Below, one piece after another: positions 15,921 to 55,050 of a stretch of 64,000 nucleotides of DNA; position 1 is the first letter of the stretch, and each line of letters begins with the position of its first letter. The translations under genes were made by a program, and so were the position numbers. The stretch lies in sequence record NC_049438.1; one strand, given 5' to 3'. The notes beneath the pieces are model-generated. The model did not search any database and was not told the origin of the DNA. It was given only the letters and a program-made list of their open reading frames with translations. This DNA is from Acinetobacter phage vB_ApiM_fHyAci03.

Positions 15921-16034
15921 TGCTTTACAAAATTTTGATGTTATAATGGTTCTACCGGTTCACCGCTCTAATTATATCTATTCGGTCGGAGAAGATAGAG
16001 TTTCAGATGATATAGATGTATCTGATATATCTGC
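15921..16034 (-). repeat. copy 1 of a ~110-bp repeat, inverted relative to copy 2 at 54941..55050
   Basis: Reverse complement matches copy 2: gatatatcagatacatcta, then 55 identical nt atcttctccgaccgaatagatataattagagcggtgaaccggtagaaccattata, then catcaaaatttt and taaagca; about 88% identity overall. Confidence 0.65.
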
Positions 16035-16054
16035 ATTGAAAATATAGAATATTG

Positions 16055-16078
16055 TGCTGCGCACAATGATGCGCAGCA
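16055..16078 (-). terminator. hairpin tgctgcgca-caatga-tgcgcagca immediately downstream of the gp2 stop
   Basis: 9-bp GC-rich stem; weak T-run on the minus strand. Confidence 0.4.
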
Positions 16079-16084
16079 TCTAAT

Positions 16085-16924
16085 TTATTTCTTCCATACT
16101 TTTGAGGCTGCAAAACGTTTACCTTGTGATACAAATTGTTGAAGTGGCATTAACACGACATTACCCCAATCAGCAGGTTTAATTTCAACGAATCTGCCTT
16201 TTACATGAGCAGGCAAATATGCTTTAATCATTACATCAGCGCCATTGAAGCCTTTAACTTTTGACCAATCAATTTTAAGCACAGTATTATTTGTGATAGT
16301 TTTTGTAGATGAATAACTTTTTAATAACTCTTCTAAAAATTGTTGTCGTGCTTTAGGTGGAATATAATGCAAGTTAAGGCCATGAAATAAAGTTGTGCCT
16401 GCAACTTTGGAACGGGACGTTCCTAAAAATATGATAAGTGGATATTTATCCCAAAATGGTAACTTATCTTTATGTTTAGCATCATATATGAAAGCATAAA
16501 GTTTACCCGGCTGTGGCTTGACCACAGAGTGTCCTCGGACACCTTTAGCAAGAGTTTCTTTAAACCATTTCTCAGATTTATTGTTTACTGCTGCACCTTC
16601 ATTACGAATTTTTTCTCGCATCGATTGTCTAAAGCTATTAATCAAAATTGCTTCACGTTCTTTAGGTGTCAACTTATTTTTAGGTTTGTTCTTAGCCACT
16701 TCAGCTGCATAAGCGAGCTTGATTTTATCTCTATAACGTGTCATGCTTCTAGTAAAAGTCGCATATGGGATTCCACGTTCTTCGGCAAATGCTTTACCTT
16801 GTACGCCTTTAGCTTTGGCCTTGTACCAATCAACACCAATATTAACCCATGCTAGTTCTTGGCGTGTGATTTTAGGCTGAAGATTTTTTGGCACTTCGGC
16901 TTCATCTAATTGAAAAATACTCAT
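16085..16924 (-). CDS. 2: DNA end protector protein gp2
   Basis: 279 aa (T4 274), basic; between gp3 and gp4 as in T4. Confidence 0.6.
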
Positions 16925-16932
16925 AATAACTC

Positions 16933-17388
16933 CTAAATTTTCATCCCAAGTTTCCTGAGTCCTTCTTCCGTCAGTACTCTGAATTTTACATTTCGTTTTT
17001 CAGCTAGCGCTTGTGCTGCTTTCCACTTATCTAAGTTCACTTGCCATGTGTAGCATTCATTTTCATATCTACGTTTTGCACCGGCGGTCAATTTTGCAGG
17101 AGGCTTTGGAGGCATAGTTTCTTTCTTTGGCTTAATTTCAATGAAGAATTCTTGCCCTTCATGTGTTTTGAACCAAATGTCCATAAAGTAACGACGTTTA
17201 CGTCCATCTGCATGAGAAAAATATTGGATGACCACCTCTTCACTTGACCAGTACTTTACACGAGGATCAGTATCTAACCAGTTGAAGTACCACTTCTCCC
17301 ATGACGACCTATATGTTACTTTGTCAACATGCCCTTTGTACTTTGACTTATTTTTGACGATGTACTTACCGCTGTATGCCACATTCAT
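16933..17388 (-). CDS. 4: head completion protein gp4
   Basis: 151 aa (T4 150), divergent from gene 53 as in T4. Confidence 0.6.
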
Positions 17389-17396
17389 ACCTCCAT

Positions 17397-17404
17397 TTAT
17401 AAAT
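17397..17404 (+). promoter_or_regulatory. late promoter TATAAATA for gene 53
   Basis: Exact consensus about 26 nt upstream of the ATG at 17430. Confidence 0.6.
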
Positions 17405-17429
17405 ACTTTTATTAAAATTTTATTTATAA

Positions 17430-18035
17430 ATGGAGATCGTTGTGATTAATTCTTACTTTGATCCAGTTCCTTATGCTGCAAAAACAGTTAACATCAATGC
17501 TCCAGAAAGATTGATGACTAACATATTCAAAAATTATACTGCGTTTTTTAAAAATGTTGCATCAAAATACAATCTTATAACATATTATATCCAAGGTGCA
17601 CCAAGACCTGAAGCATTGTCATATGAGCTCTATAACAACACACAATTTTATTGGGCTCTAACAATGGCAAATGATTGCTATGATCCTTATCATGATTGGA
17701 TCAAATCACAAGAAGCATGTTATGAATCAGTTGCACAAATATACGATCGACCTGAAGAAGTAATAGTTTACCATATTGATGCCAGAGGCGAACGATATTA
17801 CAATCTTATTCAATACGATGACGAGCCTGGCGTTTGGTACGACAAGGGCGATAAAAACAGAAAATATCCGCAATTTAAAGGTGCTTTAGCAGCGGTCAAT
17901 GCATATGAAGATGCATTAATGGAAAATGAAAAGAAGCGTGAAATTAAAATTATTTCACCTACTGATATTGACAACTTTGTTGCAGATTTGATTAAAGAAA
18001 TGGAGAAGAGCTTAAATGAGACTACAATCAGATGA
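17430..18035 (+). CDS. 53: baseplate wedge protein gp53
   Basis: Aligns along its length to T4 gp53 (FDPIEYAAKTVN, YDKGDKxRKYPQ, GALAAV). Confidence 0.8.
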   Translation: MEIVVINSYFDPVPYAAKTVNINAPERLMTNIFKNYTAFFKNVASKYNLITYYIQGAPRPEALSYELYNNTQFYWALTMANDCYDPYHDWIKSQEACYESVAQIYDRPEEVIVYHIDARGERYYNLIQYDDEPGVWYDKGDKNRKYPQFKGALAAVNAYEDALMENEKKREIKIISPTDIDNFVADLIKEMEKSLNETTIR

Positions 18036-19800
18036 TGTTAAATGGTGGGTAGGAGTCGTTGAAGATCGTCTTGACCCATTGCAACAAGGACGTGTCAGAG
18101 TACGTGTTGTAGGCGTTCATCCATTTTCAAGGATTCAAGGCGAGTTTTCAGGGTTGCCGGTCGAAGATTTACCTTGGATGAGTGTACTTTTGCCTGTAAC
18201 TACTCCAGCAGTAGCAGGTGTATCTGGTGCGGTCACTGGACTCTTGCCTGGTTCTGGAGTATTTGGTATTTGGCTTGACAAATATAAAACAAACGGGCTT
18301 GTTCTAGGTTCATATTCAGGTAATCAAGTTAATATTCCAAATTCTGAAGAGGGATTCAGTGATCCATCAGGTCAATACCCTGATTATGCTGGGCCTGATA
18401 GTTCTGCGCTTAATGCCGGTGGTGCCTATGGGGATGCTGCAGGCGCCAATGCTAGTCAAAATGCCAACTCATCTACAGGTTTATGGCCTGGAGGAGCAGA
18501 TATTTCTGGGCCAGACGATTCGCCAAATTTTACTATCGAGAAAATGCTTAGAGGCGATGAAGGTGTTAAGAATACCGTGTATTGGGATCATTTAGGCTAC
18601 CCTACTGTAGGAATTGGTCACTTGATTTTATATCGTAAAACACGTGATATGGGGCTTATCCTTAAAAAGTTATCTAGTGACCTTGGACACTCGGTTGGTG
18701 CCACTATTTCACAAGCCGATATCTCTAAATTGTTTGTTTCTGATTTAGGCAAAACACAAGCTGAAATCAAAAAGAATCGTATTACAGGTCCAGTCTATGC
18801 TAAATGCAACCGTTCTAGACAAATGGCACTAGAAAATATGGCCTTCCAAATGGGAACTGGTGGTCTGGCCAAGTTTAAAAAGTCTTTAGCATTAATGGCA
18901 GAAGAAAAATGGGATGAGGCTGCAAAACAGCTTAAAAATTCTTTATGGGCTAGACAAACTCCGGGTAGAGCTAATCGTGTTTGTATGGTGATTAAGAACG
19001 GTAATCTAGGAGCTTATGGTGTTATACCTAGAAAACCACAACCGAATAGTAAATCTTTATCTGTTGTTCAGCCACTAAGCATGGGTTTTATGGATAACAA
19101 TTTTGACCCATATGACAAGTCAGATACAGAAATTTATCCTAATTATGACACTACTGAGACTAAGGATGGCATTGATGAAGATCTTAGTGTACCGTATGTT
19201 AGAGAACCGTCAGCCACATTATTTGTAGAGCCAAATAGCTCATATCAAGGAAATTATCCTTATGTGCAGGCTCTAACTACTGAAGGCGGTCATTCACAAG
19301 AATTTGACAACACTCCTGGACAAGAGCGTTATCGTATTCGTCATCCATCAGGCTCCTATGTCGAGGTGGCTCCAGATGGAAGAAAGACTGACAAATGCAC
19401 TGGTGATTTGTACCATTTAACTGATGGAGACAGAAATGAATTAACTTCTGGCGAACGCAGAGTTAATGTCGGCGGCAACGAGACATATATTAATTTTGCT
19501 GATGTGGTACGCCAAATTGAAGGATCAAACAGCACTAAAATCGCAGCTGATAATACTATCGAAGTAGCAGGCAATGAGACAAGAAAAATAACTGGCGATG
19601 GCACTATAGAAGTTTCTGGCAATTTAAAAATCATAGTTGCAGCAGATGCTTCTATTGAAGTTGGCGGCAATGCAAATCTTAAAGTGTCAGGGAATCTAAC
19701 TTCTAATATTAGTGGAAATTATAATATGACTGTCGGTGGCACATATACTATCAATTCAGGTACAGTTAATTGGAATGCACCACGTTACAATATGGTATAA
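18016..19800 (+). CDS. 5: baseplate hub and cell-puncturing protein gp5 with T4-lysozyme-like domain and C-terminal beta-helix
   Basis: Lysozyme block EKMLRGDEGVKNTVYWDHLGYPTVGIGHL ... NRVCMVIKNGN parallels T4 lysozyme; VGGNxT/VSGN octapeptide-like repeats at the C-terminus; 594 aa (T4 575). Confidence 0.9.
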   Translation: MRLQSDDVKWWVGVVEDRLDPLQQGRVRVRVVGVHPFSRIQGEFSGLPVEDLPWMSVLLPVTTPAVAGVSGAVTGLLPGSGVFGIWLDKYKTNGLVLGSYSGNQVNIPNSEEGFSDPSGQYPDYAGPDSSALNAGGAYGDAAGANASQNANSSTGLWPGGADISGPDDSPNFTIEKMLRGDEGVKNTVYWDHLGYPTVGIGHLILYRKTRDMGLILKKLSSDLGHSVGATISQADISKLFVSDLGKTQAEIKKNRITGPVYAKCNRSRQMALENMAFQMGTGGLAKFKKSLALMAEEKWDEAAKQLKNSLWARQTPGRANRVCMVIKNGNLGAYGVIPRKPQPNSKSLSVVQPLSMGFMDNNFDPYDKSDTEIYPNYDTTETKDGIDEDLSVPYVREPSATLFVEPNSSYQGNYPYVQALTTEGGHSQEFDNTPGQERYRIRHPSGSYVEVAPDGRKTDKCTGDLYHLTDGDRNELTSGERRVNVGGNETYINFADVVRQIEGSNSTKIAADNTIEVAGNETRKITGDGTIEVSGNLKIIVAADASIEVGGNANLKVSGNLTSNISGNYNMTVGGTYTINSGTVNWNAPRYNMV

Positions 19801-19803
19801 CTT

Positions 19804-20262
19804 ATGGCAAAGATAGTTCCAGCAAGTACTAAATTATCTACAATTATGGAAGGTGATAACGTTAGTTTCACCTTCTCAGCCGAATTGGCTGCAACAGAAA
19901 AATTGGTTAGTTTAAAAATTATACAACACGACTTCCCGTCGTATATTTCTATTAATGGCGCAACATTTTCAGGAAGATTTACAAATTTATTCAAACTTCC
20001 GCTGAATTCATTAAAATATCGTAAAGGTCTAGAATATGGACAAGCAACAACTTTCGCTGAGTTACCGCCTAAAGGAACTGCTGACATATATTCGTTTACC
20101 GCTCCTAATGTTATGTTGAAAGATTTTAATTTAACAGTTCAATTAACATACACTGAAGAGGCAAACCCTACAACTGAATTAAATATAACTAATAGTTATA
20201 TTCAGCCCGTACAAGGAAATTGGGACACATTTAAACATCAATTTTTAGACTATGTGAGATAA
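19804..20262 (+). CDS. hypothetical protein in the gp5.1 position (152 aa)
   Basis: Position between 5 and 5.4. Confidence 0.4.
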   Translation: MAKIVPASTKLSTIMEGDNVSFTFSAELAATEKLVSLKIIQHDFPSYISINGATFSGRFTNLFKLPLNSLKYRKGLEYGQATTFAELPPKGTADIYSFTAPNVMLKDFNLTVQLTYTEEANPTTELNITNSYIQPVQGNWDTFKHQFLDYVR

Positions 20263-20263
20263 T

Positions 20264-20539
20264 ATGGCATCTTTATCATTTGACAAGGCCATGACTACTG
20301 GTCACGGGCCATATCCACCTACACAAATAAATTCATCACAATCTAAATTCTTTGTAGAAAATAAAGCTGCATTAGTAACAGGCGATCTTGCCAATAATCA
20401 TGGGCATAGTCCTGTTGGTGCATGTATAGCATCTTCAACAAAATTTTTCATTGGTGGTAAGGCTGCAGTTCAGATAGGTGATCCACTTACAGATGGGGAT
20501 ACCGTTGCACAAGGCAGTTCAAAATTTTTCATAAATTAA
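20264..20539 (+). CDS. 5.4: PAAR-repeat spike tip protein gp5.4
   Basis: 91 aa, Gly/His-rich with repeated KFF(I/V) strands, immediately after gene 5. Confidence 0.6.
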   Translation: MASLSFDKAMTTGHGPYPPTQINSSQSKFFVENKAALVTGDLANNHGHSPVGACIASSTKFFIGGKAAVQIGDPLTDGDTVAQGSSKFFIN

Positions 20540-20548
20540 GAGGCATCT

Positions 20549-22498
20549 ATGGCAGATTTACCAAATTATACTCATGGGCAACTTCAACGAACAGTTAATG
20601 CTATTCCAGATGTTTTTGTTGGTGCCACATTCCAAGAAATAAAAAATTCTTTAATTAACTGGCTCGCTGGTCAAAAAGAATTCAAAGACTATGATTTTAG
20701 CGGGTCACGCATTAATGTATTATTAGATTTATTAGCATACAATACATTGTATATTCAACAATTCTCTAATACTGCAATATATGAATCATTTTTAAGAACC
20801 GCTAATTTAAGAAGTTCTATTGTTCAAGCCGCCCAAGATAATTCATACTTACCTAGTGGCATGACCGCTGCTGAAAATACCATTCAGCTACGTGTTTCTA
20901 ACCCGACTAAACCAAATAAAATTACAATTCCACGCGGAACAAAATTTCTTGCTTATGCACGCGAAACTTCGGCTGATCCATACCCATTTGTTGTTACAGA
21001 AGATGTAGTAGCAGTTAAGGATTATCAAAATGAGTATTGGCCTATTGTTCGATTAGCACAAGGGCGAATTGTTAGAACTGAATTATTATTTAACAGAAAT
21101 GAACCGATTATCATACGAGACGAATTCATTGATCGCAATCATATTCAAGTCTTTGTAGATGGAGCAAGATGGACTAACTGGACTCATAAATCTATGGTCA
21201 ATGCTGGTTCAACATCTACGATTTATTATGTTCGTGAGACAATCGATGGCTTCACTGAAATTTATTTTGGTGAAGGTGAATTATCAGTTTCAACAACCAA
21301 TGGTGCTTTAGAAGCAAATTATATCGGTGGGCTTAAGCCTACACAAAATGCATCAATTGCCATTGAATACATTCGTACTGATGGTGCAAAAGCAAATGGT
21401 GCAAAAGACTTCACATACGCCGATACTTTGCAATATATCACAATTGATGAAGTGATTGAAAACTTCAATAACGACCCAGATTATGTAGGTGCTGATGGCG
21501 GCGGTGATCCTGAAGATAAAGAGCGTATTCGTGAGATGGCCGCGGTTAAGCGTGAAGCTCAAATGCGATGTGTTACTGCATCAGATTATGACTCATTTGT
21601 GTCTGAAAGATTTGGTTCTATTGTTCAAGCTGTTCAAACATTTACTGATTCAGATAAACCCGGCTATGCCTTTATTGCAATTAAACCAAAATCTGGATTG
21701 TACTTGACAGCTGTTCAACGCGAAGATATCCAAACTTATTTGAAAGAATATAATTTAGCGCCTATTACGCCTTCAGTCATTTCACCTAACTACTTGTTTA
21801 TAAAGCACAATATTCGTGTTACATATGCCATTAACAAGTTGCAAGAATCTGAGCAATGGCTTGAATCACAAATTCTTGATCAAATCGATAGATACTATAT
21901 CGAAGACGTCGAATTGTTTAACAAATCCTTTGCTAAATCTAAAATGTTAACCTTTATCGACAATGCCGATCATTCTATTGTGGGTTCATCAGCTTCAATT
22001 CAACTGGTTCGTGAAATTCAAAACTTTTATGTTACACCAGAATCTGGGATTAAATACTATAACACTGTTAAACCTAGATCAATTGAATCTAATGAATTCC
22101 CATTTCTCCCTGGAAATGATTCAGATGCATATAATGTTAAAATTGTTTCTACTGATGCAGATGCAAATAATAAAGGCAGTATTTTAGTAGGCCCGTTTGT
22201 GCCTGGTGATATTCCTTCTCATATTGCGCCGTATACTAATGACGATTTTACACGTGAAGTTATCGGAGCACAACGAGTTTATTACAAAATAGGTGAAGCC
22301 AATTACACAACAGATTATGTGTATTGGAATATGGGAGCGTTAGATGTAACATCTGATAAGTTTGAGGTACAACAAATTGAACTTTATTCAGATCCAACTA
22401 CGGATAATATTTTCACACGTGATGGATCATTGATTGTATTTGAAAATGACTTACGCCCACAATACACAAAAATTACATTAGAGGCAATCACACAATGA
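20549..22498 (+). CDS. 6: baseplate wedge protein gp6
   Basis: 649 aa (T4 660), synteny. Confidence 0.7.
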   Translation: MADLPNYTHGQLQRTVNAIPDVFVGATFQEIKNSLINWLAGQKEFKDYDFSGSRINVLLDLLAYNTLYIQQFSNTAIYESFLRTANLRSSIVQAAQDNSYLPSGMTAAENTIQLRVSNPTKPNKITIPRGTKFLAYARETSADPYPFVVTEDVVAVKDYQNEYWPIVRLAQGRIVRTELLFNRNEPIIIRDEFIDRNHIQVFVDGARWTNWTHKSMVNAGSTSTIYYVRETIDGFTEIYFGEGELSVSTTNGALEANYIGGLKPTQNASIAIEYIRTDGAKANGAKDFTYADTLQYITIDEVIENFNNDPDYVGADGGGDPEDKERIREMAAVKREAQMRCVTASDYDSFVSERFGSIVQAVQTFTDSDKPGYAFIAIKPKSGLYLTAVQREDIQTYLKEYNLAPITPSVISPNYLFIKHNIRVTYAINKLQESEQWLESQILDQIDRYYIEDVELFNKSFAKSKMLTFIDNADHSIVGSSASIQLVREIQNFYVTPESGIKYYNTVKPRSIESNEFPFLPGNDSDAYNVKIVSTDADANNKGSILVGPFVPGDIPSHIAPYTNDDFTREVIGAQRVYYKIGEANYTTDYVYWNMGALDVTSDKFEVQQIELYSDPTTDNIFTRDGSLIVFENDLRPQYTKITLEAITQ

Positions 22499-26584: not shown

Positions 26585-26612
26585 CAACAGGGACCTTTAG
26601 GTCCCAATGTTG
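26585..26612 (+). terminator. hairpin caaca-gggacc-ttta-ggtccc-tgttg after gene 8 (no strong T-run; attenuator or processing site)
   Basis: Inverted repeat read directly; coordinates +-2. Confidence 0.35.
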
Positions 26613-26620
26613 TATAAATA
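26613..26620 (+). promoter_or_regulatory. late promoter TATAAATA for gene 9
   Basis: Exact consensus 23 nt upstream of the ATG at 26644. Confidence 0.55.
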
Positions 26621-26643
26621 TTAAAATTATAAGAGGATTACGT

Positions 26644-29986: not shown

Positions 29987-31512
29987 TGGAGACACCACTT
30001 AATAATACATACAAACACATTGCAGATGCAGCACAATATATCTCATTCAATCCAACAGATACAAGTTTTCCTGCAACTGTAGTAGATGTTCAAGCTGCAT
30101 TGGCTCTTACTTCTCCTACTACATACGCCACTGCCACTACCGCAGGTGTCGTCAAAATTGCTACCAAAGATGAAGTTTTAGCAGGGGTTGATAACACAAA
30201 AATGGTGACACCATTCACTCTAAATGAGAGAATGAAATATCCTGATGCCACTACAACAGTTAAAGGGCTTGTAACTTTAGCTACTAATGCAGAGGCTCAA
30301 GCCGGAGCCATAACTTCAAATAAAGCTATCAATCCAGCAAGTTTGAAATACACACTTGATTGGTGGTGGGACAATAAATTAGCATCTGAATCTGCACAAG
30401 GTGTTATTAAATTATCTACACAACAAGCTGCACAAGCCGGAGTAGATGATTCTACCGCAATGACACCATTAAAGGTCAAACAAGCCATTGCAGCTGCCAC
30501 AGCACAAATTCCGCAACCTGTACAAGCTACTGAGACTGCACCGGGTATAGTTCAACTTGCAACAATTGGACAAGCACAACAAGGCACTTTAAGAGATGGA
30601 TATGCAATCTCGCCATATACTCTTCAACGTATTACAGGAAGTCTTACAACACGAGGATTAGTCCAAGCTGCAACTTTAGCACAAGCTAACACAGGGGCGG
30701 ATGACACCTTATACATTTCTGCTAAAGGATTCAAAACATATAATGCTACCACTACAAATTATGGTACAGTTAAATTAACCGATACACCTGGGACCACCGG
30801 TGCTGGTGTCGTGTTAAGTTCTAATGCTAAAGTATTAAGCACTGTATCTACCGGTACACAAACTGTCACAGGCATTGTTAATTTTACTGAAACACTTCAA
30901 CTTCAAGGACAACCAGTAGCCAATCAAAAATTTGTTAAAGATTCTATTCCGATTGGCGTCATGATGGAATGGTTCGGTGATTCAGCGCCTCCTGGAGGTA
31001 TGTGGGCGTTATGCGACGGTGGAGCCGAATCAAAGGCTGCACGCCCAGAGCTTTTTGCGGTTATTGGCTATAAATTCGGCGGTTCTGGTGATACATTCTA
31101 TCGCCCAGATATGAGAGGTCTTTATGCTCGTGGTGCTGGGCGTGGTAAAGACATCATTGCAAACACCGGATATGATGAGTTCAATAAACCTCTATTAGGT
31201 AATGGTGTAGATGGCGGTGTTGTTGGACAAGTTCAAAAGCAACAAATTCGTGAACATAAACACATTGTTTCTTGGGGCGAAAATCGTAGAGAGACGCCTA
31301 ACTTCCCATTTGGTGGCACACAGTTAAGTAAATATTGGGGGACCGCTGGTAAGGAAGATCATGATAATGGTTGGATGTTCTCTAACGATGGAACAGAATT
31401 TGAACCTGCATCAGTGCGGACCGAATATTCTACTGTCAACCCTAAAGAGTTAATTGGAACAGAGACACGCCCATGGAGCATGTCAGTAAACTATATTATT
31501 AAGGTGGCTTAA
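29986..31512 (+). CDS. 12: short tail fiber protein gp12
   Basis: 508 aa (T4 527); Ala/Thr-rich repeats and C-terminal receptor-binding/collar domain (GVMMEWFGDSAPPGGMWALCDGG). Confidence 0.75.
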   Translation: METPLNNTYKHIADAAQYISFNPTDTSFPATVVDVQAALALTSPTTYATATTAGVVKIATKDEVLAGVDNTKMVTPFTLNERMKYPDATTTVKGLVTLATNAEAQAGAITSNKAINPASLKYTLDWWWDNKLASESAQGVIKLSTQQAAQAGVDDSTAMTPLKVKQAIAAATAQIPQPVQATETAPGIVQLATIGQAQQGTLRDGYAISPYTLQRITGSLTTRGLVQAATLAQANTGADDTLYISAKGFKTYNATTTNYGTVKLTDTPGTTGAGVVLSSNAKVLSTVSTGTQTVTGIVNFTETLQLQGQPVANQKFVKDSIPIGVMMEWFGDSAPPGGMWALCDGGAESKAARPELFAVIGYKFGGSGDTFYRPDMRGLYARGAGRGKDIIANTGYDEFNKPLLGNGVDGGVVGQVQKQQIREHKHIVSWGENRRETPNFPFGGTQLSKYWGTAGKEDHDNGWMFSNDGTEFEPASVRTEYSTVNPKELIGTETRPWSMSVNYIIKVA

Positions 31513-41208: not shown

Positions 41209-41223
41209 GTGAAATCCGATTGG

Positions 41224-41231: not shown

Positions 41232-41268
41232 AACTTATATCAATCGGAACCACTCTGTAGGAGGATTT

Positions 41269-44094: not shown

Positions 44095-44097
44095 ATA
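44090..44097 (+). promoter_or_regulatory. late promoter TATAAATA for gene 22
   Basis: Exact consensus about 27 nt upstream of the ATG at 44124. Confidence 0.55.
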
Positions 44098-44123
44098 AAA
44101 TTATATTAAAACAGGAAATCAAA

Positions 44124-44957: not shown

Positions 44958-44986
44958 TAAAAAATTATTCATAAAGGTAATAAAAC

Positions 44987-46567: not shown

Positions 46568-46578
46568 TTCCTTTCCAT

Positions 46579-46612
46579 TCTTTGAAAAAGTAAAGGGACT
46601 CATTTGAGTCCC
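46579..46612. terminator. bidirectional terminator agggactca-ttt-gagtccct flanked by T/A runs, between gene 23 (+) and the nuclease-like ORF (-)
   Basis: Perfect 9-bp stem, tttttt downstream on the plus strand, A-run upstream. Confidence 0.6.
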
Positions 46613-48030
46613 TTTTTTGTTTTGTATAATATGTTACCACAGTCCCATATTCTCCGTAAACCGTTTGCATAGCAATTTTCAGATTCAGATAGTTCTTCAT
46701 CAAATATTTCTAACTTGTCTTTAAGGACATGCTTCATGTAACCTGAACGATGTTTGAGTTCTCCATCAACAATATAAAAATATCCAGGCTTTGTTACTCC
46801 GACTTTCTCCATTCCCATTTGTTCATATACATTTCCGAAACTCCAGCGTCGATTTGCATATGAAATCAAATTCATTCCTTTAAGAAGTTTTGATGCACCG
46901 CCAACTACACAGGTATATTTTTTAGAACATAGTCTCAATAGTTCCATGTCATATCCTTTATTAAATCGTGGCTTGCCAAACGTTGCAACTTGAACAAGTT
47001 CGCCGTTATAGAACAGACCTTTAGCTGATGCCGCACCACATTTGCCTTGTAGATGGTTCTCTTCACAAAATTCATGCGCTATTGAAACAGAGATATCTCT
47101 AATGTCACATTTTCGAGCATAGATTGATTTTGATTTGCCCAATTTGTGTGAAATGACTGATTTCCAAATTTCACGTTTGATTGGATTTCGCCATTCATTT
47201 TCAAAAATGTGCAATAAGTGGATACCTTGCTTTTCACATTCTTCGGTTTTTGAAATGTGAGAATTTCTAATGTGTTTATCGTCAGCAGAATCTCCTGAAC
47301 TATGCCAGAAAATACCATTGTACTCTATTGCGAGCTTATGCGAAGGAATATACAGATCTAATTCTCTTGGAGGTATTATGTCTCTTCTATTAATATCCAC
47401 TGTAGCGCCTAGGCTTGTTATAAATTCATATAGTTCATCTTCTGCAATTGATCTACTTTTGGTACGAACACCATGATCAAGAGAAATCCTATACATGAAT
47501 GTATAATGGCACCCAATAATTTTAACCAAATCATCAAACCCATGTGTCTCATACATTTTAGTGAATTGGGCTTTATCATATACCCAATCTGGTATATGAT
47601 CTCTGCTTGGTTTTCTCGCCTTTATGGATTTGATGCCTTCTTTGGTGGTCCCGACATCACCATAACGTTCTCTGCGAGTATCCCAAACCTTTTGATGATA
47701 GTCATTTCGTCCTTTGAGAGCTGAAGAGATTTTCTTTGTCCTTGCCTCAACATCAGTGTTGCTTACTTTCTTTTGCTTGACTTCAGGATCGTTAGCCGAA
47801 CATTTTCTACTACAATACAATGATCCAATGGGTGCTGGATTAGAGCATACTTTACATTTAGGCAGTTCTGTTAGACCTAGCATTGCTAGTTTCATAACCG
47901 TGCTATCATCAAGACTGGCGTCGTACGCTGAACGATCAAACTTATCTGGATTATTCTGCACTAATTTCCGCCAGTTTGGGTTTAGTTTGCCCTTTGCATT
48001 CTTAAAAAAATCTATGTCTATCATCATCAT
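46600..48030 (-). CDS. zinc-ribbon plus PD-(D/E)XK/Vsr-like nuclease-domain protein (476 aa) inserted between genes 23 and 24 on the opposite strand; candidate free-standing homing endonuclease
   Basis: N-terminal CKVCSN...CSRKCS Cys4; LDLYIPSHKLAIEYNGIFWHS resembles the D...(A/V)IExDGxxxH nuclease core; flanked by bidirectional terminators; no counterpart at this position in T4. Confidence 0.5.
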   Translation of the reverse strand: MMMIDIDFFKNAKGKLNPNWRKLVQNNPDKFDRSAYDASLDDSTVMKLAMLGLTELPKCKVCSNPAPIGSLYCSRKCSANDPEVKQKKVSNTDVEARTKKISSALKGRNDYHQKVWDTRRERYGDVGTTKEGIKSIKARKPSRDHIPDWVYDKAQFTKMYETHGFDDLVKIIGCHYTFMYRISLDHGVRTKSRSIAEDELYEFITSLGATVDINRRDIIPPRELDLYIPSHKLAIEYNGIFWHSSGDSADDKHIRNSHISKTEECEKQGIHLLHIFENEWRNPIKREIWKSVISHKLGKSKSIYARKCDIRDISVSIAHEFCEENHLQGKCGAASAKGLFYNGELVQVATFGKPRFNKGYDMELLRLCSKKYTCVVGGASKLLKGMNLISYANRRWSFGNVYEQMGMEKVGVTKPGYFYIVDGELKHRSGYMKHVLKDKLEIFDEELSESENCYANGLRRIWDCGNILYKTKKGLK

Positions 48031-48072
48031 CCACTCAATAGAAGTGTATAGGTATAATTATATATCATCGCA

Positions 48073-48080
48073 TATAAATA
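48073..48080 (+). promoter_or_regulatory. late promoter TATAAATA for gene 24
   Basis: Exact consensus about 32 nt upstream of the ATG at 48112. Confidence 0.55.
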
Positions 48081-48111
48081 GTAAATATACGCGTATAAAA
48101 GGAACCAATTT

Positions 48112-49383: not shown

Positions 49384-49411
49384 CATTTCTACTGAGATAA
49401 ATTACACACAA

Positions 49412-49440
49412 AAAGGGAGCCAAATGGCTCCCTTTTTGTT
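49412..49440. terminator. bidirectional terminator gggagcc-aaat-ggctccc with flanking A/T runs between gene 24 (+) and hoc (-)
   Basis: Perfect 7-bp GC stem plus tttttg. Confidence 0.6.
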
Positions 49441-50526
49441 TTAATATATGATTCCGGCATCCAATGCAGAACGATGAACAATACGTCCATGTCTAGATTC
49501 TTGGACATCCACTTCCGGGAAATCTTTAATCATTTTAGCTAAAGTTAACAAATGATAGTAGTATGGATTATCTTCCGGAGGTTGTTTCCAATCACCACCA
49601 GTTTTTGTAATCTTTTCAATTTCATCCATTACCCACCAACCAGCCCAAATATATGCAGAATTACGATGTGGAAGAGGATGGACATATTGTCGTTTATCTT
49701 CAGGTATAACGATTTCTTTTTCTGCAACATTAACCGATGTACTTTTCTTAACAGTGAACGGCAAATAATTTGCATGTGTTGCAGTTAATGTACATTCATG
49801 GTTAACTGTACCAACGCTTGAAGCCGTTACATTAATTTTTGCTGTTGTCTCTCCAGTATTCCAAGCGTAAGCATAAGTAACACCAGCTGGGCCGCCTGAG
49901 GCAATAGCATCAACAGAATAAACATCACCAACTTTAACATCAGAACTATCCGCCAACACGTTAAAATTGACACCAGTCATTGCAGTTTTATTAACTGTGA
50001 TTGTTAATTCATTCGAATCAATAATCTTATCAGTATAATCAGTTGCTTTGACTGTGATCTTACATGTAAGCTTTACTGGTCCAGGAGCAGTTGGTGTTTT
50101 AGTTGTAGTTGCAGTAGTCGAACCATCCGACCAAAGATATGTTATTGTTGCGCCAGCTGGTTGACCTGCAACAGTTGCTGTTGCTGTATAAGATTCACCA
50201 AAATTAATAGTAGGTTTCGATGTAGCAATAGAACCGGTAGTAGTCTGGGTAATTTTAGTTACAGTTAAGTTCGTTGTTGCCGTTTTAACATCATCGGCTT
50301 CGCCTTCGACTTTAGTTGTCGATGTAACTTTAATTACATTTGTGCCTACCTTTGTAGTTACATAGTCTAACGTATTAGTTGTTGAAGTTTGAGCAACTCC
50401 ATCGACTTCCCATTTATATTCAACAGTCGAACCTTCTGGCGCACCAGTAACAGTTGCAGTAAACTTTTGAGTTTTCCCTTTTTCGACAGAAGGGTTAACT
50501 GGGGATATTTGTAATGTTGTTGCCAT
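49441..50526 (-). CDS. hoc: Hoc-like outer capsid decoration protein with three Ig-like repeats
   Basis: Repeated Thr-rich Ig-like modules (TVTGAPEGSTVEYKWEVDG, TVAGQPAGATITYLWSDGS, ASGGPAGVTYAYAWNTGE) plus Trp-rich C-terminal capsid-binding region; position after gene 24. Confidence 0.7.
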   Translation of the reverse strand: MATTLQISPVNPSVEKGKTQKFTATVTGAPEGSTVEYKWEVDGVAQTSTTNTLDYVTTKVGTNVIKVTSTTKVEGEADDVKTATTNLTVTKITQTTTGSIATSKPTINFGESYTATATVAGQPAGATITYLWSDGSTTATTTKTPTAPGPVKLTCKITVKATDYTDKIIDSNELTITVNKTAMTGVNFNVLADSSDVKVGDVYSVDAIASGGPAGVTYAYAWNTGETTAKINVTASSVGTVNHECTLTATHANYLPFTVKKSTSVNVAEKEIVIPEDKRQYVHPLPHRNSAYIWAGWWVMDEIEKITKTGGDWKQPPEDNPYYYHLLTLAKMIKDFPEVDVQESRHGRIVHRSALDAGIIY

Positions 50527-50535
50527 TAGTTGTCC

Positions 50536-51246
50536 TTAGCTTAAAGTCACAAAACTTGAATTTCGTGTTTCACGAATACGGACAGAGCCGTCACGATTGA
50601 TGTAATAAATTAAACTTTTCAGTACATCTAATCCATGGTAATGCGGGAAAGCATTTGGGTTAGATTTCCAGTCAGGATTTTGTGTGATCCATTCATAGAT
50701 CCACCATGGTAGTGTGTAATATCCTGGCGCAGGACCAATGAGTTCAAATGCAGGTTTAAAATTATCCGGCAAAACTGATTTTGGCGATTCAATATCTTGA
50801 GGCACAATTTCCGCTGAAAGCTTAATTTCTTGTACAGGTGTTATAGGTTTAATAACAACATCGGCTACAACTTTTTCACCAAGCTCACCAGTTTCAGTTC
50901 GAACATCGATAATTTTAAAATCTTCAACCACAGGTGAATCAATTAACAATTTTTGTGCTTGTTCTTTGACTTCATCAAAAACTAGTTTGCCATCTGAGCT
51001 ATCAGCCGCAGTGATCAAATCATTGATTGTCAAGCCTTCATTTTCTTCAGGCAGTGGCTCATTAGCCAATTCAGCGAGTCCGGCTTTAATATCAGCTACA
51101 ATTGAATCAAACGATTTTGTCTTTTTAATTCTGATGCCAAACGTTGCTGCGTATTCTGCTAACTTCTCTTTGGCAAGACGCTTGTCTTCAACTGAAATTT
51201 GCTCTAACTCTTTTATATAATCATGATCTAACATGTATTTCTCCAA
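50536..51246 (-). CDS. inh: acidic protein in the position of T4 inh (prohead protease inhibitor)
   Basis: 236 aa (T4 Inh 226), between hoc and uvsW as in T4; sequence similarity not verified. Confidence 0.45.
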   Translation of the reverse strand: MEKYMLDHDYIKELEQISVEDKRLAKEKLAEYAATFGIRIKKTKSFDSIVADIKAGLAELANEPLPEENEGLTINDLITAADSSDGKLVFDEVKEQAQKLLIDSPVVEDFKIIDVRTETGELGEKVVADVVIKPITPVQEIKLSAEIVPQDIESPKSVLPDNFKPAFELIGPAPGYYTLPWWIYEWITQNPDWKSNPNAFPHYHGLDVLKSLIYYINRDGSVRIRETRNSSFVTLS

Positions 51247-51264
51247 TATGGGATTAATTTATTT

Positions 51265-51286
51265 TATTTATACTTGCGTATAAATA
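51265..51286. promoter_or_regulatory. divergent late promoters: minus-strand TATAAATA (plus tatttata 51265-51272) for inh and plus-strand TATAAATA (51279-51286) for uvsW
   Basis: Both exact consensus octamers, 20 and 30 nt from their respective ATGs. Confidence 0.5.
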
Positions 51287-51315
51287 TCTTTATACTAAAG
51301 CTTAGGTAAAGAATC

Positions 51316-52830
51316 ATGAGTGACATCAACGTAATGTTTTACGATTATAGCCACATCAAGATCAGTACCCAGCAGTCGATATTCAGAGAACTAAGAGATT
51401 ACTTCTCATTTTATGTGGATGGATATCAGTTTTCGCCTAAATATGTTTATGGTACTTGGGATGGAAGATTAAAGATGCTTGGAACTGATGGCTTGCTACC
51501 ATTTGGCCTTTTAGGACAAGTAGTAAAATTTGCGCAGAATAATATGCTATCAATTGCTATCCATCCAGATGTTTCAGCTAAAACTGAAATGACACGTGAC
51601 GCCTTCAATGATTGGATTAGTTCTAAGACGTATTATTCTGGCTCAGAAGAAATCTTCCCATATTGGTATCAACTCAATGCAGTATATGAAGCCATTGTTA
51701 ACAAGCGCAGAATTTTGAATTTGCCTACATCAGCCGGTAAATCGTTAATTCAAGCCTTATTGTCAAAATATGTCATAGAAACATCAGATCGTTCAGTTTT
51801 AATTTTAGTGCCAACAACTTCTCTTGTAACTCAGATGAAAGATGATTTTGTTGATTATCGATTGTTTGAAGAAGATGAGATTGCAGAAGTTCGTTCAGGC
51901 AAGCGCCAAAAGCATGAACGAATTGTTATTTCTACATGGCAATCAGCTATCAAAAAGCCAAAGGAATGGTTCAATCAATTCAATATGTTATTGTGTGATG
52001 AAATGCATTTAGCCATTGGCAAATCTATTTCAGAAATCATTAACAAATTAAACTACTGTGAATTCAAAATAGGCTTGTCTGGATCACTACGTGATGGCAA
52101 AGCCAATTTAATGCAGTATATTGGATTGTTTGGTGAAATCTATAGCCCAGTTAGCACAAAGGACTTAATGAATGATGGACAAGTTTCACAACTTCGAATT
52201 AACGCGTTATTCTTGAAATACCCAGAAACAGTTTCAAATGCAATGGCTAAACATGACTATGCAACAGAAGTTAAGTTCATTACAAACTTAGCCAAACGAA
52301 CACAATGGATTTCAAATCTATCATTACGACTTGCAAATAGATCAGAAAATGTTTTTGTCATGTTTAAAAATATTGAGCACGGTAAAGCGATTTATGACAG
52401 CATAAAATCTAGTGGTCATGAACATGTGTATTATGTTTCAGGTGAAGTTAGTTCAGATGAACGAACACATTTGAAGAAAATGGCTGAAGAACACACAGGT
52501 GTAATCATCATTGCTTCATACGGAGTTTTCTCTACAGGTATTTCCGTTAGAAATCTACATCATGTCATTTTAGCTCACGGAGTAAAATCAAAGGTTATAG
52601 TCCTGCAGACAATCGGGCGTGTTTTGCGAAAACATTCTAGCAAAAAGGTTGCACAGATTTGGGATCTAATTGATGATATGTCTATTACTGTCGAACGAGA
52701 CGGAGCAAAACAACGTAAAAATGTTAATTATTTGTTGAAACACGGTATAGACCGTGTTGAACGGTATGCTGCAGAGCAATTTGACTATATTATGAAGGAC
52801 GTTTACTTTTTAGAGAATAACCGCTCATGA
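51316..52830 (+). CDS. uvsW: UvsW RNA-DNA / branch-migration helicase (SF2)
   Basis: 504 aa; Walker A NLPTSAGKS, DEAH-like LCDEMH, motif III-like stretch and QTIGRVLR motif VI; position as in T4. Confidence 0.8.
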   Translation: MSDINVMFYDYSHIKISTQQSIFRELRDYFSFYVDGYQFSPKYVYGTWDGRLKMLGTDGLLPFGLLGQVVKFAQNNMLSIAIHPDVSAKTEMTRDAFNDWISSKTYYSGSEEIFPYWYQLNAVYEAIVNKRRILNLPTSAGKSLIQALLSKYVIETSDRSVLILVPTTSLVTQMKDDFVDYRLFEEDEIAEVRSGKRQKHERIVISTWQSAIKKPKEWFNQFNMLLCDEMHLAIGKSISEIINKLNYCEFKIGLSGSLRDGKANLMQYIGLFGEIYSPVSTKDLMNDGQVSQLRINALFLKYPETVSNAMAKHDYATEVKFITNLAKRTQWISNLSLRLANRSENVFVMFKNIEHGKAIYDSIKSSGHEHVYYVSGEVSSDERTHLKKMAEEHTGVIIIASYGVFSTGISVRNLHHVILAHGVKSKVIVLQTIGRVLRKHSSKKVAQIWDLIDDMSITVERDGAKQRKNVNYLLKHGIDRVERYAAEQFDYIMKDVYFLENNRS

Positions 52831-53621
52831 ATTACAAAAGAATATACGATGAACTTATTAATAATGCGCTAAATCGTGCTAGTGTCAAATCTAAAGCTGC
52901 TCCTGGAGAATTAGAAACGCATCACATCGTGCCTAAATGCATTGGCGGCACTAATGATACTACGAATTTAGTTAATCTTACCACCAGAGAGCATATTATC
53001 GCGCATCTTTTGCTTGCTAAAATTCATGGCGGGAAATTAGTACGAGCCGCCATGGCAATGCATATGGGGCGCCCTTTATATAAATCGTCACGAGGCTTGG
53101 CAGCAATACGAAGTGAGTTTTCAAAACAACGAAAGGAACAAATGAAGGGAAATACATTTGGCTCTTATGTTTGGACACCTGAACGCAAAAATATACACAA
53201 ACAAGCGATGAGCTTGGTAGGGTATACTGATGCTAAACGTAAAGCTCTAGAGAAAGCGTGGGCTAAAAATACCGGGTCCAAGCAAACACCTGAAAGTAAT
53301 TTTAAGCGTTCAAATAGTATGAAATTATTAGGGTTTGTCCCGGTTAAAGCAGGAGACTTTAAGACTTGTTCTAATGCTGGCAAAGCCAATAAAGGTGTCA
53401 AGAAATCATTTAGGTCTGAGTCACATAGTGAAAATTGGAAACGGTCATTTAAACAAAGGTACCCTATTTGGGAGTATGAAGACCAGATACGAGAAATATG
53501 GTACGCCCATGATAAACCTAAAGTAGCAACTTTAAGAAAGATCGCTACGGCTAAAGGCATACCAGAAGGACACCTCGGTAAAATGTGTGCTAACTTTTTT
53601 AAACAAGATGGGACCAAATAG
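52827..53621 (+). CDS. HNH homing endonuclease (free-standing, Mob/I-HmuI-like)
   Basis: ELETHHIVPKCIGGTNDTTNLVNLTTREHIIAH is an HNH motif; 264 aa; ATGA overlap with the uvsW stop. Confidence 0.75.
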   Translation: MNYKRIYDELINNALNRASVKSKAAPGELETHHIVPKCIGGTNDTTNLVNLTTREHIIAHLLLAKIHGGKLVRAAMAMHMGRPLYKSSRGLAAIRSEFSKQRKEQMKGNTFGSYVWTPERKNIHKQAMSLVGYTDAKRKALEKAWAKNTGSKQTPESNFKRSNSMKLLGFVPVKAGDFKTCSNAGKANKGVKKSFRSESHSENWKRSFKQRYPIWEYEDQIREIWYAHDKPKVATLRKIATAKGIPEGHLGKMCANFFKQDGTK

Positions 53622-53632
53622 GTCCCTTTGTG
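53611..53632 (+). other. hairpin gggacc-aaata-ggtccc overlapping the HNH gene stop codon
   Basis: Perfect 6-bp stem; the stop codon tag lies in the loop. Confidence 0.4.
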
Positions 53633-53635
53633 CTA

Positions 53636-53905
53636 TCAATAATTTTCGTCACAGTCTTCACACATTTTGCGATCAGCTATTTCATTGTAGACACGAATTT
53701 CAACTCGTCGCCAATGATCACACTCTTCACAACAAAACACACGAGTTTCTAAGTTGTCAATAAAGATGACTGAATGCTTTAGATTCGGATCTAAATTCAT
53801 TTCGATCAAATTTTTCTCTAGCGCATTACCCCAAGTTTCTTCTAAACCGTCTAGGCGTTCTGCTAGCCCATCCATTTGGATATCGTCTGGTTGCTCAAAT
53901 TTCAT
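53636..53905 (-). CDS. small zinc-ribbon protein (89 aa)
   Basis: CCEECDHW...CEDCDENY, two CxxC pairs. Confidence 0.4.
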   Translation of the reverse strand: MKFEQPDDIQMDGLAERLDGLEETWGNALEKNLIEMNLDPNLKHSVIFIDNLETRVFCCEECDHWRRVEIRVYNEIADRKMCEDCDENY

Positions 53906-54167
53906 AAGGCTTACTCCAAAATGTTAAAAATCTATTGCGCATTTCATCATCGCATAAGTTGAAAATAATCAAACAAATCGAATCATGGTCTTCTTCATCA
54001 AAAAACTTGACTAGGCCTGTCATAGATTTTTTAGATCCATCAGAAAATGCTAAACATTTTCCATCTTTATTGCGCAGTATTATTTCTTGGCACCAGTTAT
54101 GCACCTCAAGTTTAAATATTTTGCCATTAGCGTTTATTGTTACAATAGATGTAGGTAAAGTAACCAT
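53895..54167 (-). CDS. hypothetical protein (90 aa)
   Basis: ORF track; translational coupling. Confidence 0.35.
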   Translation of the reverse strand: MVTLPTSIVTINANGKIFKLEVHNWCQEIILRNKDGKCLAFSDGSKKSMTGLVKFFDEEDHDSICLIIFNLCDDEMRNRFLTFWSKPYEI

Positions 54168-54484
54168 TATTTGTACTCCTTTTCATCTACATAAAATTCG
54201 ATGAATTTGTCGACATCCTTGGATGTTGCGTATGCTGTTACAACCCCACGTTCAAAGTCAAAACTTTTAACTAATAAACGTTCATGCCATGGATCAACTG
54301 CCCAACCAAATGGATATTTACGATACGGACAAACATAATGGACATTACATTCTTCAACGCCATTGAACATTAAACCAGGAGATCCAACAAATTGAACTAC
54401 CCATCGTTCAGATGTGTTACGTACAGTAGGCGTATCGCATGTTAATTTAGTAGTTTCAGCGCGAAATGAATTAACTTTGCCCAT
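54167..54484 (-). CDS. hypothetical protein (105 aa)
   Basis: ORF track. Confidence 0.4.
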   Translation of the reverse strand: MGKVNSFRAETTKLTCDTPTVRNTSERWVVQFVGSPGLMFNGVEECNVHYVCPYRKYPFGWAVDPWHERLLVKSFDFERGVVTAYATSKDVDKFIEFYVDEKEYK

Positions 54485-54559
54485 GATATTTTACTCATAT
54501 CGTTTAATATGTATGCATTATATACCACAAAAGGACCATAGTAAATAGTCCTTTGTAGA

Positions 54560-54727
54560 TTATTTTAGCTTTTTATCAGTGTACTTGCAACAAGGTACAA
54601 AATGAGAAATATAAACTCCTTGTTCATGACATGGACATCCACATTTTTTAATAATCTCATTCTGCTGTGCTGTTAGCACAGGTTTCCCAATTTTAAGAAT
54701 TTTGTTTAGTACTTTTACTAATTTCAT
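54560..54727 (-). CDS. small Cys-rich protein (55 aa; below the track cutoff)
   Basis: Manual translation MKLVKVLNKILKIGKPVLTAQQNEIIKKCGCPCHEQGVYISHFVPCCKYTDKKLK; ATGA overlap with the upstream ORF. Confidence 0.3.
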   Translation of the reverse strand: MKLVKVLNKILKIGKPVLTAQQNEIIKKCGCPCHEQGVYISHFVPCCKYTDKKLK

Positions 54728-54891
54728 AACAATAACTCTGTTTCTAATAGCATGTCACCATTAGATTCTAGAACTGGCAAATCTTGAATGTGCTGCAAGC
54801 AGTGTCCAGGATGGACAGGTCCTTGATCAGTCTCAACTACCAATGCTTCATCAATCGGCATCTTACATACCGAACATATACGTGTTTCCAT
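54724..54891 (-). CDS. small zinc-ribbon-like protein (55 aa; below the track cutoff) under a late promoter
   Basis: Manual translation METRICSVCKMPIDEALVVETDQGPVHPGHCLQHIQDLPVLESNGDMLLETELLL; RBS GGAG and late promoter upstream. Confidence 0.35.
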   Translation of the reverse strand: METRICSVCKMPIDEALVVETDQGPVHPGHCLQHIQDLPVLESNGDMLLETELLL

Positions 54892-54917
54892 TATTATTCT
54901 CCAAATGTGTATAGATG

Positions 54918-54925
54918 TATTTATA
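54918..54925 (-). promoter_or_regulatory. late promoter TATAAATA (minus strand) driving the small-ORF operon 54891 down to 53636
   Basis: Plus strand tatttata; 27 nt upstream of the ATG at 54891. Confidence 0.5.
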
Positions 54926-54940
54926 GATCTTTGAACAGCT

Positions 54941-55050
54941 GATATATCAGATACATCTAAACCATCAGTCCCCTATCTTCTCCGACCGAATAGATATAAT
55001 TAGAGCGGTGAACCGGTAGAACCATTATACCATCAAAATTTTATAAAGCA
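54941..55050 (+). repeat. copy 2 of the ~110-bp repeat (inverted relative to copy 1 at 15921..16034)
   Basis: See copy 1; the core atcttctccgaccgaatagatataattagagcggtgaaccggtagaaccattata is identical. Confidence 0.65.

Follow-up and report, generated by a model that had tools for sequence, protein, structure and literature searches.

A family of homogenized, promoter-led non-coding cassettes in T4-like Acinetobacter phages, with candidate origins of the oriF/oriG type

Background

The origins oriF and oriG of bacteriophage T4 are each about 100 bp long and combine a middle promoter with an A+T-rich DNA unwinding element (DUE) whose sequence is not critical; a transcript that persists at the DUE as an R-loop primes leading-strand synthesis (PMC3016281). 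The T4 origins have no motif in common and need no specific sequence, oriE has iterons, and the use of R-loops beyond oriF and oriG is an open question (PMC3016281). The consensus of the T4 MotA box is (a/t)(a/t)(a/t)TGCTTtA, with a gap of 12 ± 1 nt to the -10 element (PMC2988021). Repeated promoter-bearing elements of another kind are the promoter-early stem-loop cassettes (PeSLs) of phages RB49 and phi1, in which a strong sigma-70 promoter with -35 and -10 elements contains or adjoins a terminator-like stem-loop (Arbiol et al. 2010, PMC2839356). Here we analyze a stretch of 64,000 nt from Acinetobacter phage vB_ApiM_fHyAci03 (NC_049438.1; this whole stretch is called the window below), in which a first-pass annotation, made from the sequence alone, had noticed a near-identical inverted repeat bracketing the 39-kb block of virion structural genes. 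The two arms prove to be members of a family of five promoter-led cassettes per genome that are homogenized by gene conversion and that may be origins of replication.

An inverted repeat made of two members of a five-copy family

The arms of the repeat, copy 1 at 15921-15998 and copy 2 at 54973-55050, are 78 nt long and 97% complementary in a repeat search of the window, which also found a second block of 40 nt at 80% (16006-16045 and 54927-54966); BLAST joins these blocks into a single alignment of 15921-16034 with 55050-54938 (114 nt, 91.2% identity). The longest exact block measures 57 nt (15942-15998 and 55029-54973), and the perfect core of the first-pass annotation holds, at a length slightly above the 55 nt given there. 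Further exact matches comprise 19 nt (TAGATGTATCTGATATATC, 16013-16031 and 54959-54941), 12 nt (AAAATTTTGATG, common to both copies) and, about 30 nt further upstream, an A/T box of 11 nt (AAAATTTGATC, 15890-15900 on the + strand and 55091-55081 on the - strand) that is also found upstream of the copies in phage DLP2. The likeness of the two copies is far beyond chance, since the other inverted repeats in the window are much shorter (at most 41 nt at 71–80% for the runners-up) and the promoter pattern TGCTTTA-N11-16-TATAAT occurs in the window only in the two copies, against an expectation of 0.04. Both copies are intergenic, and they lie in opposite orientation at the outer borders of the structural block, just as the first-pass annotation had it.

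The window belongs to a T4-like myophage and is 98–99% identical to genomes of the genus Lazarusvirus, for example MD-2021a, vB_AbaSI_3 and DLP2. A 205-nt query around copy 1 has matches at about five sites per genome in 50 related phages, and the positions of these cassettes are conserved in about 50 genomes of two genera, Lazarusvirus and Hadassahvirus. Mapped in the complete DLP2 genome, the five copies are copy a beside srd (16984-17099, +), copy b between the split polymerase genes 43A and 43B (48074-48015, -), copy c between gp3 and gp2 (80271-80485, +), copy d after gp25 (118668-118556, -) and copy e between rnh and gene 34 (149268-149157, -). Copies 1 and 2 of the window are members c and d of this family, in which each cassette is about 130–200 bp long. 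BLAST finds only these two members inside the window; what had been described as a pair is a pair there and two of five copies per genome, which goes part of the way towards the annotation's own reservation that many dispersed copies would mark a generic regulatory motif. The exact core has no match in 185,579 prokaryotic genomes and none in the JGI metagenomes, and in IMG/VR it matches two Acinetobacter phage contigs only; a host or metagenomic source of the core was rejected for lack of an exact match in the prokaryotic genomes and the JGI metagenomes.

Alignment of the copies reveals a common order of elements, which runs 5' to 3' from an A/T box through a palindrome, 14 nt, an extended -10, the heptamer GGTTCTA, the core and a variable part to an A+T-rich stretch. 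The right half of the palindrome, TAAAGCAC..GTGCTTTA, is a MotA-box-like TGCTTTA, and the extended -10 is TG(G/T)TATAAT, with 14 nt between the box and the -10; GGTTCTA, which follows it, is a start region that early promoters of these phages have in general. Copies a to d combine TGCTTTA with TGnTATAAT, and in copy e a sigma-70 -35 element (TTTACA, with a 17-nt spacer) replaces the MotA box. The core, CCGGTTCACCGCTCTAATTATATCT..TTCGGTCGGA, corresponds to the first 50 nt or so of the transcript, which are conserved and of which the first 24 or so (+1 to +24) are invariant in the five paralogues and the two genera while the promoter spacer changes. In copies a and b the variable part contains two small G+C hairpins.

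Copy 1 reads on the + strand. Its TGCTTTA (15921..15927) pairs with an AAGC upstream as the right half of an imperfect palindrome, and its extended -10, TGTTATAAT (15939..15947), recurs together with the GGTTCTA start region at other early promoters of these phages; there follow the conserved initial transcribed core GGTTCTACCGGTTCACCGCTCTAATTATATCTATTCGGTCGGAGAAGATAG (15948..15998, within the 57-nt block), which is non-coding and has no conserved fold, an A+T-rich unstable stretch that is a candidate DUE (15999..16053, from the stability profile and Tandem Repeats Finder, TRF) and a G+C hairpin with a T-run, predicted by terminator scan and folding to be a terminator on both strands (16054..16090). 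Copy 2, on the - strand, has its TGCTTTA (55044..55050) inside the palindrome TATAAGCA..TGCTTTATA, an extended -10 TGGTATAAT (55024..55032) and a core identical to that of copy 1 (54973..55023). Its A+T-rich unstable leader (54892..54972) holds the shared 19-mer, a late promoter TATAAATA (54918..54925, -) and the Shine-Dalgarno sequence of the first downstream gene.

Each arm thus opens with TGCTTTA-N14-TATAAT and a TGn extended -10, which supports the earlier suggestion of a middle-promoter element with a MotA box (TGCTTA-like) and contradicts the accompanying remark that the repeat is not simply a shared promoter: the arms do share a promoter, and their unusual features are the transcribed part, which is conserved, and the orphan state of copy 1. 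A sigma-70 scan misses both promoters of the window, which have a consensus -10 without a -35 element at 16–18 nt. Nothing was found to support a role for the ACCGGT dyad in the core, to which attention had also been drawn.

The copies fall into two kinds according to what lies downstream. In copies b, d and e, genes follow at a distance of at least 100 nt. Copies a and c end at intrinsic terminators and form orphan units of about 130–150 nt that are antisense to their neighbours; these two orphans are conserved together with their terminators in the two genera, the terminator reading AAAGGAGCC..GGCTCCTTT in Minot and AM101. In the window, copy 1 lies between two - strand genes and is antisense to both, namely gp3, encoding the tail completion protein (15306..15875, -), and gp2, encoding the DNA end protector (16085..16924, -), towards the 3' end of which its transcript heads. 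The terminator hairpin occupies 16054-16079, with 10 pairs and a tail CTAATTTATT on the + strand, and the terminator scan also matches the - strand; the region 16054-16090 probably ends both the orphan transcript on the + strand and gp2 transcription on the - strand.

The A+T-rich stretch varies between strains in sequence and in repeat number. TRF reports tandem units of period 9 at 16015-16033 of copy 1 (2.1 units) and in copy c of DLP2 (4.2 units, DLP2 locus 30394-30431), and AB-Navy-v2 has an 18-nt duplication in copy c (locus 1160-1215). Copy c as a whole carries a small variable-number tandem repeat of A+T-rich units of 9 or 18 nt.

Gene conversion, crossovers and a published inversion

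The copies of the cassette are homogenized by gene conversion and can serve as sites of crossing over. Where all Hadassahvirus paralogues read CTCTAAATTTA, those of Lazarusvirus all have CTCTAATTATAT, the promoter spacers are genus-specific, and copy a of phage Kimel bears a marker of copy b. Agreement of the paralogues within each genus and their difference between genera indicate that the copies evolve in concert.

Evidence for a crossover comes from DLP2, for which a 31-kb inversion of the replication module has been published (Peters et al. 2023, PMC10051250). The junction of srd, copy a and the next gene occurs in DLP2 alone, some 49 other genomes diverging just past the element, and it corresponds to the inversion described there. 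In a four-way alignment of DLP2 and AM101 the reciprocal switch falls inside a 46-nt block, GCTGCTGCGCAGCCGGCGCTGTGCGCCGAAATTAGATG, that is common to the inverted copies a and b (DLP2 16984-17150 and 48015-48100). The flip swaps the roles of orphan and operon promoter, and, as each side keeps a full promoter cassette, the operon is still driven by an equivalent promoter. A term search of the paper yielded no mention of flanking repeats. DLP2 is a short-read assembly; its longest uninterrupted shared blocks are shorter than typical large k-mers, yet the inversion may still be an error in the assembly path. Cassette sequence also coincides with record boundaries: the KARL-1 record starts inside a cassette copy, the PhaR5 record ends inside one, and AB-Navy-v2 has a 100-N gap (locus 1001-1100) with duplicated cassette sequence on either side. 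The idea that a sixth copy points to mobility was rejected, since such a copy reduces to the duplication across the scaffold gap in AB-Navy-v2 and to the start of the KARL-1 record. The ZZ1 paper describes 114-bp inverted terminal repeats in the assembly, which may be the same kind of element or have the same cause.

For the window pair, the expectation of the first-pass annotation that recombination between the arms would invert the structural module agrees with DLP2 in its general idea, the same repeat family lying at that crossover, and has no example among the deposited relatives for this particular module; the pair involved in DLP2 is a/b and not c/d. The junction of gp3, copy c and gp2 is contiguous in 50 records and that of gp25, copy d and uvsY.-2 in 55, and no inversion isomer of the structural module is present among these 50–55 deposited relatives, which are consensus assemblies in which minority isomers could go unseen. 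A programmed switch, in which the arms flip the 39-kb module to give two genome isomers, would have 57–114 bp of near-identical inverted sequence to draw on, homologous recombination is very active in this phage, and a paralogous pair is tied to the 31-kb inversion of DLP2, real or assembled. We consider such a switch extremely improbable, however, given the same orientation at both junctions in all of these relatives, the lack of an invertase, resolvase or integrase among the 248 annotated genes of DLP2, and the fact that a flip would split gp2 and gp4 from gp3 and gp1. An invertible segment of the Gin/Hin/Cin type was rejected because no invertase is annotated in DLP2 and the c–d orientation is fixed in the 50–55 genomes.

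Recombining, promoter-bearing intergenic repeats in a T4-type phage recall the PeSLs, and the cassettes could be promoter cassettes of that sort, spread and homogenized by recombination, with modular shuffling as their main effect and the orphans as by-products that have no function of their own. Like PeSLs, they have a palindrome that overlaps the promoter and serve as substrates for recombination and rearrangement, as seen in the concerted evolution and gene conversion among the copies and in the DLP2 crossover inside copies a and b; one copy, moreover, lies in the split gene 43 locus between 43A and 43B, where PeSL-like sequences have been reported in Aeromonas phages (PMC2839356). However, PeSLs number about 50 per genome and occupy hyperplastic regions, straight before ORFans with a Shine-Dalgarno sequence and an ATG, whereas the cassettes number only five, at fixed positions on module borders of the conserved core genome. 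They further differ from PeSLs in a promoter of the MotA type and not of the -35 type, in a long conserved non-coding transcribed part that ends without a Shine-Dalgarno sequence or start codon, in their two orphan members and in that no mini-circles are known for them. The conservation of the orphan gp3–gp2 position from T4 and RB69 to the Acinetobacter phages argues for selection rather than accident, and we regard an explanation by promoter shuffling as quite unlikely.

A conserved transcript that is neither coding nor structured

The only open reading frame (ORF) common to copies 1 and 2 starts at the ATG inside TATAATG, stops at different points in the two copies and is frameshifted by a 1-nt deletion in copy d of AbTZA1; a small protein-coding gene in the core was rejected on account of this start codon within the -10, the inconsistent ends and the frameshift. 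Searches of Rfam gave no match at the gathering threshold, and at E ≤ 1 the sole match was to a snoRNA (E = 0.41) and is put down to chance; RNAalifold applied to 10 diverse copies returned a consensus energy of -0.73 kcal/mol and 3 pairs, with no consensus structure or covariation. The z-scores of single-sequence folds are -2.1, which is owed to the terminator, and -0.2. A structured RNA, whether an Rfam family, a riboswitch or a put/nut-like element, was rejected on the basis of the folding of both transcripts, RNAalifold and Rfam. A transcript without a conserved fold or Rfam match would fit an RNA that acts by staying hybridized and not by folding.

The start of the transcript is replaced in two more distant Acinetobacter phages. 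At gp3–gp2 of ZZ1 (+, locus 1833-1930) the segment after the start is a C-rich, G-poor run, CCCCTATCCCCTACCCCCTA, and a run of the same composition, CCCCCTACCCTTCC, occupies this position after gp25 in AB1I1M-1 (locus 666-720); both resemble a binding site for Rho or a repeat of telomeric type.

A function at the RNA level has to be weighed at this point: the cassette could be a strong early or middle promoter whose conserved 5' leader binds a phage or host factor, such as a nuclease, a translational repressor or Rho, with orphans a and c producing small RNAs of about 130–150 nt that serve as antisense RNAs or decoys. The orphans are indeed complete units, consisting of a promoter, about 100–140 nt and an intrinsic terminator, and the first 24 nt or so are invariant in two genera despite the changes in the promoter spacer; a GGAG in the leader and the unstructured C-rich start in ZZ1 and AB1I1M-1, which resembles a Rho-binding site, are also compatible with it. 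Yet the leader has neither a conserved secondary structure with covariation nor an Rfam family, the RNA of copy 1 stays clear of the ribosome-binding site of gp3, unrelated sequence stands in place of the invariant segment in ZZ1 and AB1I1M-1, and no candidate binding protein was identified. On balance this function seems unlikely to us.

The same invariant segment, together with the repeated AGATGTAT/TATCTRAT units downstream of it, could be read as a set of binding sites at module borders for a sequence-specific DNA-binding protein, which could be a homing endonuclease, an initiator of replication or a factor of the nucleoid or of late transcription, and the iterons of T4 oriE offer a parallel. 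The tandem units, however, differ in sequence and number across copies and strains, and no cognate protein was identified. As to endonucleases, the genes for them that occur near copy c in relatives sit between gp2 and gp4, away from the element; a homing-endonuclease link was rejected for this reason, and the footprint of such an enzyme that the first-pass annotation had considered finds no support. Protein-binding sites are in our judgement a very unlikely explanation.

Comparison with the T4 origins

The explanation that we favour is that the cassettes are origins of the oriF/oriG type that double as promoters and as recombination substrates. Origin function is suggested here by anatomy, by synteny and by analogy with T4, and we consider the case for it evenly balanced.

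The synteny concerns copy 2 above all. In the T4 RefSeq record oriF lies between gene 25 and uvsY and is directed towards the (-) strand, and copy 2 has the same gene position and strand, with gp25 on one side, the UvsY.-2 orthologue on the other and uvsW adjacent, a placement with respect to gp25 and UvsY.-2 with which the ZZ1 annotation agrees. Copy e, between rnh and gene 34 on the (-) strand, lies beside gene 34, whereas T4 oriG, also (-), is located 2.1 kb inside that gene; only copy 2 matches the position of a proven T4 origin. The promoters of copies a to d align with those of PuvsY/oriF and P34i/oriG (TGCTTTA with TGnTATAAT), the shared type being a TGCTT(t/c)A box, TGn and TATAAT. The annotation of DLP2 includes motA, asiA and rnh, and the window includes uvsW.

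The second line of evidence is the unstable DNA downstream of the promoters, which was located with a nearest-neighbour stability profile in 40-bp windows. All seven copies examined have a 40–70-bp stretch, between +50 and +150, that belongs to the least stable 1–5% of 40-bp windows genome-wide (1–4% in most). The 40-bp windows within 15999-16053 of copy 1 reach the 95th–99th percentile of instability, and copy 2 reaches percentiles 96–99 at +70 to +100. In copies a to d the unwinding stretch is less stable than the DNA downstream of 36 of 36 control promoter-like sites, a comparison that for copy 1 was made on its DLP2 orthologue. The drift of the stretch between strains, in sequence and in repeats, is as expected if only its capacity to melt matters. 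Finally, orphans a and c make no mRNA and are nevertheless conserved with their terminators, which argues for a non-coding function.

In the mechanism that we envisage, host RNA polymerase would start at the cassette promoter, at middle times with phage MotA and AsiA, and the transcript would remain hybridized to the DNA of the unwinding element that follows, forming an R-loop; UvsW, encoded beside copy 2, would later remove the R-loops. Copies 1 and 2 point inward, so that both would send forks into the late structural module, and copy 2 would double as the promoter of the uvsY.-2 operon.

Like oriF and oriG, then, the cassettes have an unstable A+T-rich stretch within about 100–150 bp downstream of the promoter and an overall size of about 100–200 bp, and, as at oriG (and oriE), the transcript can run antisense to late genes. 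They differ in that the T4 origins have little or no sequence in common whereas the five cassettes, which are candidate origins, share a near-identical core of 50–110 nt that concerted evolution maintains, and in that two cassette copies are orphan units closed by terminators. A promoter ahead of a region that melts easily, with its transcript as primer, is a layout that they also share with the primary origin of T7, in which the phi1.1A and phi1.1B promoters precede an A+T-rich region, and with RNA II of ColE1. These systems differ from the cassettes in their polymerases and sequences and in having one site per replicon, and RNA II of ColE1 is highly structured.

Several observations weigh against an origin function. 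The gap between the MotA box and the -10 is 14 nt in the cassettes versus 12 ± 1 nt in T4, and a census found few other canonical MotA boxes in the genome, too few for a spacing rule of their own; for both reasons the dependence on MotA is uncertain, and copy e has a sigma-70 -35 element in place of the box. Every functional step of the model is drawn by analogy, and a model built on the sequence-independent origins of T4 does not explain the invariant segment from +1 to +24, which may be due to gene conversion or to another factor that binds RNA or DNA. Furthermore, the RNA is not G-rich, and in ZZ1 and AB1I1M-1 it is C-rich, a composition that does not favour R-loops, and A+T-rich leaders are common in intergenic DNA. 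Nor does synteny extend to the orphans: copy a is not at T4 oriA, which lies at gene 56, and copy c is not at oriE, which lies inside gene 5 in the opposite direction, and a gene-level correspondence was rejected for both.

Matching promoters in T4, RB69 and ZZ1

The position of copy 1 has counterparts outside the cassette family. In T4 (NC_000866.4) the region between gp3 and gp2 (75,954-76,059, +) contains a MotA-box promoter, ATGCTTTA-N13-TATAAT, with TATAAT at 75,988, that is antisense to genes 2 and 3 and is not among the middle promoters in the accessible part of a published T4 list. Its first 20 nt or so resemble the start region of PuvsY/oriF, and positions +6 to +40 align in register with the transcript of oriG (P34i) with a score of 27, where 500 shuffles reach 24 at most. 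The same arrangement is found in RB69, where TATAATGGTTTTAGGTC(T)CTTCC is present at both the antisense promoter between gp3 and gp2 and PuvsY, and ZZ1 has an orphan antisense unit of the same layout at gp3–gp2. The inverted pair of RB69, on the + strand at gp3–gp2 (locus 760-860) and on the - strand at PuvsY (locus ~1000-1110), shares GTATAATGGTTTTAGGTC(T)CTTCC; PuvsY of RB69 falls inside the 3' end of gene 25.

Because T4, RB69 and ZZ1 show these matching gp3–gp2 arrangements, we take the repeat of the window to be the long and well-preserved local version of an ancient pair of inverted promoters that lie on either side of the structural module across T4-like phages, and of which one arm, PuvsY/oriF, is a proven origin in T4. 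A bolder extension, speculative and in our view unlikely to be right as a whole, is that in T4-like phages a matched inward-facing pair of origins at gp3–gp2 and gp25–uvsY would load forks, and through them the clamps of late transcription, into the structural module from either end, and that the Acinetobacter phages would have developed this into a sequence-defined family of five origins in which the same promoter in every copy lets modules flip without loss of expression, as in DLP2. A corollary would be an unrecognized oriG-like element in T4 at about 75,988-76,050, antisense to gene 2.

Neighbouring features of the window

The first gene after copy 2 encodes an orthologue of UvsY.-2 (DUF2685, 55 aa; 54724..54891, -; Pfam E = 1.3e-22) that is 64% identical to the T4 protein, and directly upstream of the copy lies the baseplate wedge gene gp25 (55097..55495, -; Pfam GPW_gp25). 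The gene for UvsW (51316..52830; Pfam UvsW_N) adjoins the region. The genes uvsY and uvsY.-1 are missing from the interval between gp25 and uvsW in this phage group, as judged from the window and the annotations of DLP2 and AM101, and the UvsY.-2 orthologue comes straight after copy 2. An ORF of 264 aa (52827-53621, +), located between uvsW and the small-ORF operon, has a putative HNH-like motif. It is probably a free-standing homing endonuclease insertion, since DLP2 has no gene at that position, its uvsW ending at 117239 and the next gene starting at 117254.

A short second inverted pair (17393-17426 and 56177-56210; 27–34 nt, 71–89%) brackets nearly the same block as copies 1 and 2; both its members, at gp4–gp53 and gp26–gp51 respectively, are divergent late-promoter regions with TATAAATA on both strands. 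Rfam also identifies five tRNA genes on the - strand (10283-10354, 10825-10898, 11283-11353, 13068-13140 and 13159-13216, the last a partial match), which span 10283-13216.

Conclusions

The structural description of the element, a promoter-led non-coding cassette present in five homogenized copies, is secure. Its general kind is known, either as an origin composed of a promoter and a DUE or as repeated promoter cassettes that serve as recombination substrates. In the literature searched we found no description of a sequence-conserved multi-copy family with orphan members, of the tie between this family and the DLP2 inversion, or of the matched pair at gp3–gp2 and gp25–uvsY in T4 and RB69, all three of which appear to be new.

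For therapeutic phages of Acinetobacter baumannii, the repeats explain the published 31-kb inversion, and their coincidence with assembly breaks is a caveat for the genome orientation of such phages; recombination between the co-infecting phages of a cocktail is also to be expected at them. If the cassettes are origins, they constitute a set of five that can be recognized by sequence, in contrast to the motif-less origins of T4. With one cassette orthologous to oriF and two that have no coding role, the rules that govern the number, spacing and orientation of origins and their use of R-loops would then become directly testable.

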